DNA of 64,000 nt from Dehalococcoidia bacterium (GTDB lineage: Bacteria > Chloroflexota > Dehalococcoidia > Lucifugimonadales > UBA3495). The notes beneath the pieces were generated by a model. The model saw only the letters and a program-made list of their open reading frames with translations. It was not told the origin of the DNA and ran no database searches. Position numbers and translations under genes: made by a program. Below, piece after piece: positions 50,454 through 51,814 of this stretch (positions within the stretch are counted from its first letter, which is position 1; the number at the start of each line of letters is the position of its first letter). The stretch covers positions 1,721,399-1,785,398 of the forward strand of contig OY763929.1 in the NCBI GenBank assembly GCA_963667675.1, given 5' to 3'.

Positions 50454-50609
50454 CCAACACCCCAACTCGTCATCCCTCGCCCCCAACCAGTCACCCCCCA
50501 CCACCAACTGTCATTCCGAGGAGCCTGCGATGAGGAATCTAAAGTCCCTCCCCACCACTTACGTCATACCCACGCGCTTAGGTTGCCCGCTCGCCCTTGT
50601 ATCTTAAAC

Positions 50610-50750
50610 ATGGACGTGACAGACCGTTTCGTCCTAGGTCTTGCAGACCGTGGCTCAGCAGGGTCGTCACGTCCTGCCTGCTCAGAGCCCGAACAGTTGA
50701 CTGGGCAGTGGAGCCCGAATTAGGCAAGGATGGGCCAGAGTTAGGGAGAG
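50610..50750 (+). ncRNA. Predicted IS110 bridge RNA with target- and donor-binding loops
   Basis: Stem GGACGTGAC/GTCACGTCC encloses TTCGTCCT and GGCTCAG; second stem-loop encloses ACAGTTG and CAAG; ends approximate. Confidence 0.85.
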
Positions 50751-50773
50751 ACATCTTTGGAGGAGGTGGATGT

Positions 50774-51702
50774 ATGAACCAAGAATCCTTGTTGTTCGTT
50801 GGCATAGATGTATCCAAGGACCGCTTGGATGTGGCGGTGCGGCCTACCGGTGAGGCCTGGCAGGTCTCCCACGACGCCCTGGGGATCAGCCGACTGGTGG
50901 AACGTCTTGGGGAATTGGCGCCCCAATTGGTGGTGCTGGAAGCTACCGGTGGAATAGAAATGGCCCTGGCGGGAGAACTGGCCAGCTCCCGACTGGCTAT
51001 AGCAGTAGTTAATCCCAGGCAGGTGCGGGACTTCGCCAGGGCAGCCGGGAAACTGGCCAAAACCGATGCTTTGGACGCCCACGCCCTGGCCCACTTTGCC
51101 CAGGCCATGCGTCCGGTCTCCAGGCCACTGCCCAATACCGACACCCAGGAATTGAAGGCCCTGGTCGCCCGAAGACGCCAACTGGTGGAGATGATCACCG
51201 CAGAGAAGAACCGCTCCAAGACTGCCACTAGGCGTATACGCCCCAAGGTCCAGGAACACATCCTTTGGCTGGAAGATAATCTGAAGGGTCTGGACCAGGA
51301 CTTGGGAGACTTCATCCGCTCCTCCCCCATGTGGAAGGACAAAGACCAGTTGCTAAGAAGCGCTCCCGGTGTGGGGCCGGTGCTATCCATGACGCTGTTG
51401 TCCGACCTGCCGGAACTGGGCGCCTTGAACCGTGGCGAGATCGCCGCTCTGGTGGGCGTGGCGCCCTGAAGGGAAAACGCAAGGTGTGGGGCGGGCGCAG
51501 CCAGGTGCGGGCCGCACTCTACATGGCGACCTTGGTGGCCACCAGGTACAACCCGGTCCTGCGGGCCTTCTACCAGCGTCTGTGCGACGCCGGCAAACCC
51601 AAGAAAGTGGCCATCACCGCCTGCATGCGCAAGCTGCTTACCATACTCAACGTCATGGTCAAACATAATCGCCATTGGAACCCTATCGTTCAGAACTCTT
51701 GA
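50774..51702 (+). pseudogene. IS110 recombinase/transposase, frameshifted at ~51466 with loss of the catalytic SG segment
   Basis: GIDVSK, LEATG, KTDALDA (DEDD); frame 1 stops at GVAP*, C-terminus (KGKRKVWGGRSQVRAALYM..KPKKVAITACMRKLL) continues in another frame. Confidence 0.9.
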
Positions 51703-51814
51703 CATTCAAGACAGTTGCTGAGCCTGTCCTGAGGCTCTCGAAGGGCGCACGGCGCACCAGCCATGCCTAACCCATCCTTCCGCTCCCCCAACCCAGCATC
51801 CCCGCCCCCAACCC

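Follow-up and report, generated by a model that had tools for sequence, protein, structure and literature searches.

An IS110-group element inside a REP-like hairpin

The DNA analysed here, a 64,000-nucleotide stretch of the Dehalococcoidia contig OY763929.1 (referred to as the window), carries at 50598–51717 of its forward strand a 1,120-bp insertion sequence (IS) of the IS110 group, lying between two CT dinucleotides (Table 1). A long non-coding left end is followed by a broken recombinase gene and a short right end, and the halves of a hairpin-forming repeat of the repeated extragenic palindrome (REP) type flank the whole. Assignment to the IS110 group follows from the left end (176 nt) being longer than the right end (15 nt), a relation described as reversed in the IS1111 group (PMC11208160), and from the identical CT core at both junctions, beyond which the target is not duplicated, the boundaries being those proposed in the initial annotation of this DNA. 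The termini are strongly conserved: TGTATC at the start of the left end is invariant in 24/24 aligned left ends and the right terminus is unchanged across the 57 relatives listed. By descent the element is a member of the IS110 group (IS621-like), but a defective copy.

We consider it highly probable (roughly 0.9) that 50598–51717 is an IS621-like IS110 copy in a Dehalococcoidia-type genome, with a bridge RNA whose guides can be read directly from the sequence and with a REP-like hairpin as its target. The architecture of the element, covariation within the RNA structure, covariation of the guides with the flanks and with the element ends, and positional homology to the guides of IS621 all argue for this reading.

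A covarying two-stem-loop structure in the left end

A search of genome contigs with the 231-aa fragment of the window recombinase yielded 78 loci, mostly from Dehalococcoidia or Chloroflexota metagenome-assembled genomes, with identities of 48–93% and none identical to the window. The closest relatives, L001–L003 (93% amino-acid and about 90% nucleotide identity), have an uninterrupted open reading frame (ORF) with both Pfam domains. Twenty-four distinct left ends were aligned with MAFFT (alignment A1), the consensus fold was obtained with RNAalifold, and a covariance model (R1) was built from A1, that is, from left ends of the Dehalococcoidia clade only; a shortened calibration makes its E-values rough. 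R1 has 82 matches in 489,170 bases, comprising all 78 loci, three extra elements and the window, and every one of them lies on the recombinase strand. In the window it scores 181.4 bits over 50598–50767, the sole match in 64 kb. The match stands directly upstream of the ORF in 76/78 loci and is displaced by an insertion in the other two, L072 (629–793) and L073 (634–796), where about 1.7 kb of inserted DNA separates the left end from the recombinase ORF.

The consensus of the 24 left ends consists of two stem-loops, in each of which a small hairpin caps an internal loop. Within A1, CCCGAACAGTTG and GCAAGG are near-invariant, the latter being present in 24/24 left ends, and two stretches are variable. 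Helices 1 and 2, which form the target-binding stem-loop, have 98–99% of their cells paired, with changes on both sides in 11/17 pairs; for helices 3 and 5 of the donor-binding stem-loop the corresponding counts are 9/11 and 1/4. Over the whole structure, compensatory changes are found in 21/34 pairs, against 8.6 ± 1.9 in shuffles (0/500 reach 21) and 5–9 in slid controls, and 95.5% of the cells are paired, against 88.8% in shuffles and 34–48% in slid controls. The left end thus carries, on the recombinase strand, a two-stem-loop non-coding RNA fold supported by covariation.

Target guides covary with the flanks

Internal loop 1 holds a left and a right target guide (LTG and RTG) and internal loop 2 a left and a right donor guide (LDG and RDG). 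The segments that the initial annotation had singled out, TTCGTCCT at 50628–35, GGCTCAG, the two occurrences of ACAGTTG and CAAG, are present in the sequence as claimed, and GTTCGTCCTGAG does recur in the repeat variants at 42612 and 55890. It is also the case that the guides lie in internal loops rather than stems in the 24-sequence consensus, the lone exception being two invariant pairs (G-C and U-G) between the ACAGUUG and GCAAG stretches, which are probably spurious. The window RTG matches the right flank 7/7, and the LTG, core included, pairs with the left target through six of nine Watson–Crick pairs plus two wobbles. This is the loop 1 layout described for IS621-type bridge RNAs, whose 5' side repeats the top strand of left target plus core (8–9 nt) and whose 3' side is complementary to core plus right target (4–7 nt) (PMC11208160).

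For the comparison of guides with flanks, loop columns were taken from the model alignment, left flanks from the model start, and right ends as the first exact downstream occurrence of each element's own LDG 7-mer. Sixty-nine copies representing 29 guide types had enough flank on both sides, and no rows were dropped, the truncated copies L024 and L027 included. Cognate guides matched the left target at 4.59 of its seven non-core positions and non-cognate guides at 2.53; for the five non-core positions of the right target the values were 4.79 and 2.15, and 0/10,000 permutations reached the observed value in either test. Restricting the comparison to eight mutually divergent guide types gave 4.62 versus 2.07 on the left and 4.75 versus 1.36 on the right. 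Individual pairs illustrate this: LTG CCCGUCCCU with flank CCCGTCCCT in L044/45; LTG AGUGAGCCU with flank (G/A)(C/A)(T/A)GAGCCT, and RTG reverse complement CTGTCGAAC with flank CTGTCGA(A/C), in L047/48; and RTG reverse complement CTGGTCACC with flank CTGGTCACT in L055/56. Within the close clade the RTGs GGCUCAG, AGCUCAG and CCCUCAG pair with the flanks CTGAGCC, CTGAGCT and CTGAGGG, L016 being the sole exception, and the left flanks of the relatives terminate in TC(G/A)(C/T)CCT.

Donor guides largely match the element ends

In the window the LDG matches the right end at 7/7 non-core positions and the RDG matches at 4/4. The LDG 7-mer recurs just after the stop codon and before the core in 71/82 model matches; seven of the 11 misses are cut by the locus end or disrupted, and L058 and L059 have a right end that is one base off (ACAGCTG vs ACAGUUG) at a U·G position. 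Little variation is seen in the donor loop or in the ends, and those guides that vary are matched by their ends: LDG ACAGCUG by right end ACAGCTG in L055/56, ACAAUCG by ACAATCG in L065, ACAGUCG by ACAGTCG in L070, and RDG GUAAGG by a left end starting TATATC in L051.

From the sequence we infer that the CA following the RTG may act as a handshake guide as defined by Hiraizumi 2024 (PMC11208158). The possibility that loop 2 holds another such position, which would track target position 6, was also considered and fails in L009, L012 and L013.

Correspondence with IS621

As a control, a tblastn search of plasmids with the L001 protein retrieved an annotated 'IS110-like element IS621 family transposase' (L079, 35.6% identity), whose junctions read ATCAGGC-CT-TGTAT and ACAGTAT-CT-AC. 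R1 matches the IS621 left end directly upstream of this gene (L079 340–522, 24.7 bits, E 2.7e-6 under the rough calibration), and the columns of the window LTG, RTG, LDG and RDG fall on IS621 AUCGGGCCU, GUAG, ACAGUAUC and CAAG, respectively; the window guides are therefore positionally homologous to those of the experimentally defined bridge RNA. The IS621 target-binding loop is reported to encode the target ATCGGGCCTAC, with an RTG of 4 nt (PMC11208160, PMC11208158). The R1 match, together with the structural and guide–flank covariation, bears out the IS621-type bridge-RNA architecture proposed in the initial annotation, and its statement that IS621 targets REP sequences agrees with the report that 144/173 insertion sites lie in REP elements (Durrant 2024, PMC11208160).

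The resemblance extends to most parts of the element. The recombinase has the same two domains (L001 vs PDB 8wt6, 4.3e-41), the left end is long, the right end short and the core CT, and the donor is ACAGTTG-CT-TGTAT in the window and ACAGTAT-CT-TGTAT in IS621. In both RNAs the LTG/RTG and LDG/RDG pairs occupy two internal loops and coincide in their model columns, and the RDG is CAAG. The dinucleotide after the RTG tracks donor positions 6–7, being AU for AT in IS621 and CA for TG in the window, and a G complementary to target position 7 (C) follows CAAG in both, IS621 CAAG being followed by GU. A −35-like and a −10-like hexamer are split over the junction with a 17-nt spacer in each case (TTGCAG/TATTAT in IS621, TTGACA/TATCTT in the window), and each inserts into a REP-type hairpin. 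A wobble between guide and target is likewise found in IS621, the natural target being ATCAGGC and the encoded one ATCGGGC, with a G·T pair in the structure (PMC11208160, PMC11208158). The differences are the target (TTTCGTC-CT-GAGCC in the window, ATCGGGC-CT-AC in IS621), an RTG of 7 nt compared with 4 nt in wild-type IS621, the lack of a 5' stem-loop (14 nt before the target stem compared with about 50 nt in IS621), an eighth LDG base that is unpaired with the core, the broken recombinase and the Dehalococcoidia-type host.

Two further systems invite comparison. The ISCro4 transposase (PDB 9t56), for which only the protein was compared, is the best solved-structure match of L001 (2.2e-42, residues 3–304). 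ISPpu9 and ISPpu10 of Pseudomonas putida are, by description, IS110 elements whose insertion sites are repeated extragenic palindromes or a conserved stem-loop; for ISPpu10 the hairpin is said to extend the target on its 5' side, whereas the left target of the window is itself the 5' arm of the hairpin.

The target repeat

Seven uninterrupted repeat copies occur in the window, with the form GGCTGTCC-GTTCG(C/T)CCT-GAGG(GAAA/CTC)TCGA-AGGGCGAAC-GGACAGCC, and the family is also found in the flanks of many Dehalococcoidia loci. As single-stranded DNA, two copies fold to 16–17-bp hairpins with z = −6.1 and −6.7, and two others give −1.9 and −2.7. The repeat thus resembles REP elements in being short, intergenic, present in multiple copies and imperfectly palindromic, with the capacity to form a hairpin. 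The 5' arm ends with the two bases of the CT core, which puts the crossover at the point where stem passes into loop. The left half of the interrupted hairpin is identical at 16/18 nt to the uninterrupted copy at 51935–51952, and its right half, TCGAAGGGCGCACG, at 14/14 nt to 51961–74; the right halves at 54605 and 56958 are the same. Like IS621, the clade to which the window copy belongs lives in a REP-like repeat family.

Several features of the repeat in related loci were recorded alongside. All seven uninterrupted copies in the window lie on the + strand and the five repeat copies in L001–L003 share the strand of their IS copy, an orientation bias. In L029, 1521–2280 holds >30 tandem copies of the 23-nt unit CCTGTCCTGAGCCTGTCGAAGGG, a module of the REP-like family, directly upstream of an IS copy, from which it follows that the repeat can expand like a minisatellite. 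L024, L027 and L073 are decayed relatives that have lost the left target guide, their left end being 5'-truncated. Left-end starts (CCCT-TGTATCTTGG...) with no remaining element stand alone beside repeat copies in L004 (~2295), L008 (~2271) and the right flank of L075, and may be remnants or scars of earlier insertions.

Observations that weigh against the interpretation

A number of observations weigh against the reading of the element as an IS621-like copy with readable guides and a REP-like target. The minimum free energy of 50598–50775 alone is no better than that of shuffles (z = −1.33; 24/200 fold as well), so that the fold that had been suggested for this sequence is upheld by the consensus of 24 left ends but not by the window sequence singly; as the single-sequence fold is not significant, the structural case rests on the family. 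No Rfam 15 family reaches its threshold at a permissive search, that release holding no bridge-RNA family. The left target GCTCGCC pairs with the LTG segment UUUCGUC by four Watson–Crick pairs and two U·G wobbles, with one mismatch, and 5/5 copies with the window LTG have C rather than the guide-encoded T at position 6. The left guide as initially read therefore agrees with repeat variants elsewhere but differs from the actual left flank at 3/7 non-core positions. The LDG is followed by AC rather than CU, which leaves the core outside its pairing, and the clade varies freely at these two columns. In the donor loop, L076 misses with 3/7 mismatches, L064 has no recognisable right end, and L074 has an RDG GCGAGG vs TG.

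The distribution of the repeat is a further point of this kind. When repeat halves were scored by regular expressions, only 33 of the 69 related copies had both, 8 had the left only, 11 the right only and 17 neither, and all but one of these 17 are of distant guide types, whose targets are unrelated. The window and L001–L003 are scored 'left only' because the right half is displaced by 11 nt. The expectation that other copies sit in the same repeat, termed family C in the initial annotation, holds for the clade around the window, but not for the 17/69 with neither half.

Imperfect pairing leaves room for a contribution of DNA structure. It has been suggested for ISPpu10 that a target stem-loop is an extra determinant (bioRxiv 10.64898/2026.03.19.712850), and by analogy target choice could depend largely on recognition of the DNA hairpin of the repeat by the recombinase, the guides giving part of the specificity in a 'sequence-structure dual match'. 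The crossover does lie exactly at the stem/loop boundary of a 16–17-bp hairpin, and guide–target identity is imperfect, with wobbles and a mean of 4.59/7. Scanning the window for the encoded targets, wobbles included, was moreover unselective, with 61 sites compared with 43 in mononucleotide shuffles (max 55); these sites are mostly non-repeats and canonical GTTCGTC-CT-GAGGG copies fall below the cut-off, so that the scan is uninformative on the 'many safe landing sites' of the initial annotation. However, the distant relatives L044/45, L047/48, L055/56 and L065 occupy non-repeat sites that match their own guides, and RNA is therefore sufficient to explain retargeting. We regard a leading role of hairpin recognition as unlikely.

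The only Rfam match raises a different alternative. It is to sX15 (RF02234), a small RNA (sRNA) of Xanthomonadaceae, and runs antisense to the left end: the sX15 model aligns end to end (model 1–159), with scores of 44.3 bits in the window (50597–50751, minus strand), 49.9 bits in L047 (2308–2463) and 39.6 bits in L001 (2334–2475). None of these reaches the gathering score of 55, and in each case the match lies on the opposite strand. Schmidtke 2011 (PMC3300014) reports sX15 and asX7 as transcripts complementary to each other and gives 10 homologues in Stenotrophomonas maltophilia. It could accordingly be argued that the left end is merely a leader, or an element regulated by antisense as in an sX15/asX7-type sRNA pair, and that the flank matches are a by-product of site specificity of the protein. 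Against this, the loop bases change with the flanks over 29 guide types and with the ends in four variants, and the guides are homologous, column by column, to the IS621 guides, the RNA of IS621 being described as necessary for recombination in vitro (PMC11208160); this makes a leader or antisense element very improbable. Given the opposite strand of the sX15 match and the complementary sX15/asX7 transcripts, RF02234 is probably a model of the strand antisense to an IS110 left end or bridge RNA. A Xanthomonas citri plasmid locus (L080), examined for the orientation of sX15, holds a truncated element with no R1 or Rfam match.

The 11-nt stretch at the right flank

Another feature that weighs on the same side is that the right flank carries CTGAGCCTGTC before CTGAGGCTCTCGAAGGGCGCAC, the canonical repeat being devoid of such 11 nt; the right half of the family resumes only at 51729, 11 nt beyond the right end of the element. 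The empty site had been read as GCTCGCC-CT-GAGCC, a palindrome of family C. This holds for its left half (16/18 nt compared with 51935) but not for its right half, as 0/12 uninterrupted repeats (window plus L001–L003) have GAGCC after CT, the bases there being GAGGG, GAGGC, GAGGT or GAGAA. CTGAGCC(T/C)GTC follows the element in 4/4 copies of the subtype, the window and L001–L003 (3467–3477 in the latter three, with one substitution in L001), and is absent from 12/12 uninterrupted repeats; a search of the window for an empty compound site found none. The stretch would represent a rare compound target or, alternatively, flanking DNA that moves along with the element.

In the second case the mobile unit of this sub-lineage would be 11 bp longer, 50598–51728, with crossover at the outer CT (51729–30) and a target GCTCGCC-CT-GAGGCTC, and CTGAGCCTGTC would be a captured piece of an earlier target travelling with the element. 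This is a reasonable possibility, though we place it somewhat below even odds. It is favoured by the presence of the 11-mer in all four subtype copies while the repeat half behind it differs by locus (GAGGCCCTC, GAGGTTCTC, and GAGGCTCTC twice), by the absence of GAGCC from the uninterrupted repeats and of an empty compound site from the window, and by the restoration of a canonical repeat on removal of the IS together with the 11 nt. Furthermore, the canonical right half reads CTGAGCCTGTCGAAGGG in other genomes (L029, L067, L068), and L016, whose RTG is identical, occupies a CTGAGGG site that has no 11-mer. However, the left donor of such a unit would be GCCTGTC, with only a 2/7 match to the LDG ACAGUUG, whereas all 57 relatives listed retain ACAGTTG-CT at the inner boundary, and excision of IS621 is reported to rely on donor-arm recognition (bioRxiv 10.64898/2026.08.31.748434). 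The repeats also form partial tandem loop duplications without an IS (flanks of L002, L003 and L004; L029 array), which makes a compound target variant chosen by the 7/7 RTG match plausible, and only about 81 kb of these genomes were sampled.

A more specific proposal, which we think doubtful, is that the window/L001–L003 lineage moves with a captured 11-bp stub (CT-GAGCCTGTC) by crossover at the outer CT, its boundary being set by the target-binding rather than the donor-binding loop. If so, the right junction would always offer a perfect 9-nt match (TG-CT-GAGCC) to the element's own RTG plus handshake bases, and the lineage would represent a natural IS110 variant in which the actual crossover occurs at a CT unspecified by the donor guide.

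The recombinase gene is disrupted by a 22-nt deletion

Returning to the IS621-like copy bounded by the inner CT, its recombinase begins with an N-terminal DEDD domain (PF01548, 1.4e-23) in a 231-codon part whose matches among solved structures (PDB) are ISCro4 (1e-31) and IS621 (9.9e-30); the GIDVSK, LEATGG and KTDALDA motifs align with both. The second domain, PF02371, is split over two frames, with profile positions 2–42 in the 5' part, 55–87 in the 3' remnant and 43–54 missing. Alignment with L001, L013 and L016 reveals a 22-nt deletion between CCCT direct repeats that eliminates the codons P-F-N-R-D-S-G and shifts the frame. In L001 the ORF runs uninterrupted through the region as ...GVAPFNRDSGSLRGKRKVWGGR..., both Pfam domains are present (PF02371 at 1.3e-17), and DSGS aligns with ESGS of ISCro4; an intact serine-containing C-terminal domain is thus found in L001 and is lacking in the window copy.

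The nucleophile of IS621 is reported to be Ser241, followed by the conserved Gly242 (Hiraizumi 2024, PMC11208158). As the deletion takes out the Ser-Gly motif, the window copy, judged by this motif, appears to have lost its nucleophile in addition to its frame, and it cannot be autonomous. The description 'natural bridge recombinase' in the initial annotation thus does not hold for a working enzyme. Movement of the relic would require recombinase provided in trans by an intact copy, and no such copy is present in the 64-kb window.

Proposed mechanism

We infer RNA expression, circle formation and recombination chemistry as follows. The left end would encode a bridge RNA of about 135–160 nt with two stem-loops. 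The element would excise as a circle with the junction ACAGTTG-CT-TGTAT, as in IS621, and the geometry of the sequence is such that joined ends would give TTGACA-17 nt-TATCTT, so that the circle junction would rebuild a promoter for the bridge RNA. Loop 1 would read the target, while loop 2 would read the joined ends of the element, ACAGUUG with the right end and CAAG with the core plus the first two left-end bases. The circle would thereupon integrate into the REP-like hairpin (consensus GGCTGTCC-GTTCG(C/T)C-CT-GAG...TCGAAGGGCGAAC-GGACAGCC) at the CT on the border of stem and loop.

Genomic surroundings

The element is placed in a 1.6-kb intergenic stretch rich in short repeats, between a ribosome hibernation factor gene upstream (49878–50453; PF02482 and PF16321) and an SPFH/Band 7 gene downstream (52090–53031, minus strand). 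Other repeat families also occur in 50454–52089, with C-rich CCCCAAC... units at 50460, 50481, 51765 and 51786, and GGAATCTAAAGTCCCTC at 50534 and again at 51833. A palindrome, TTCCCGCGCAGGCGGGAA, at 51818–51839 gives a weak CRISPR-DR28 match (21 bits compared with a gathering score of 35) that is probably due to chance.

Table 1. Positions in the window of the features of the IS110-group element and of its target repeat
Feature	Position	Strand	Detail or basis
Left half of interrupted REP-like hairpin	50580–50597	+	outer arm AGGTTGCCC, left target GCTCGCC (50589–95), core CT
Core CT	50596–97 and 51718–19	+	sequence read-out
Left non-coding end, with predicted bridge-RNA gene	50598–50773	+	176 nt, begins TGTATCTT; R1 match
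Putative −10 box TATCTT	50600–05	+	inside left end
Target-binding stem-loop	50612–50674	+	outer stems 50612–20/50666–74 and 50622–25/50662–65; cap hairpin 50637–49
Left target guide (LTG) UUUCGUCCU	50627–50635	+	5' side of internal loop 1; same sense as top-strand left target plus core
Right target guide (RTG) GGCUCAG	50652–58	+	reverse complement of CTGAGCC, 51718–24
CA after RTG	50659–60	+	complementary to donor positions 7 and 6 (G, T)
Donor-binding stem-loop	50678–50744	+	outer stem 50678–90/50732–44; cap hairpin 50703–16
Left donor guide (LDG) ACAGUUG	50693–50699	+	identical to right terminus, 51711–17
Right donor guide (RDG) CAAG	50725–50728	+	reverse complement of core CT plus left-end TG
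G after RDG	50729	+	complementary to target position 7 (C)
Ribosome-binding site GGAGGAGG	just upstream of 50774	+	
Recombinase, 5' part	50774–51469	+	231 codons plus premature TGA (51467–69); DEDD/RuvC-like domain, PF01548
Junction of 22-nt deletion	51463–51467	+	between CCCT direct repeats; alignment with L001, L013, L016
Recombinase, 3' remnant	51472–51702	+	other frame, stop 51700–02; part of PF02371
TTGACA	51699–704	+	right end; overlaps recombinase stop codon
Right end	51699–51717	+	15 nt after stop; terminus AAGACAGTTG ends at 51717
11-nt stretch CTGAGCCTGTC	51718–51728	+	core CT (51718–19), right target GAGCC (51720–24) and TGTC; outside canonical repeat
Right half of REP-like hairpin	51729–51752	+	CTGAGGCTCTCGAAGGGCGCACGG
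Uninterrupted REP-like copies	27631, 42612, 47743, 51944, 54599, 55890, 56952	+ (all seven)	

Implications

Covariation over 5,511 target–ncRNA and 2,201 donor–ncRNA pairs is already in print (Durrant 2024, PMC11208160), and the clade around the window may already be listed in the supplementary orthologue tables of that study. A literature search found no paper joining IS110 with Dehalococcoidia in the context of bridge RNAs. As thousands of orthologues have been analysed in print, the element opens no new question, though the 11-nt stretch found with every copy of the subtype may merit a closer look. It provides a natural example of the established bridge-RNA logic of IS621 from an uncultured Chloroflexota lineage, within a small clade in which at least 29 natural target guides are combined with an almost constant donor. 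Such a clade offers comparison material for the rules of specificity, among them wobble tolerance at left-target position 6, RTGs of 7 nt and the absence of a 5' stem-loop.

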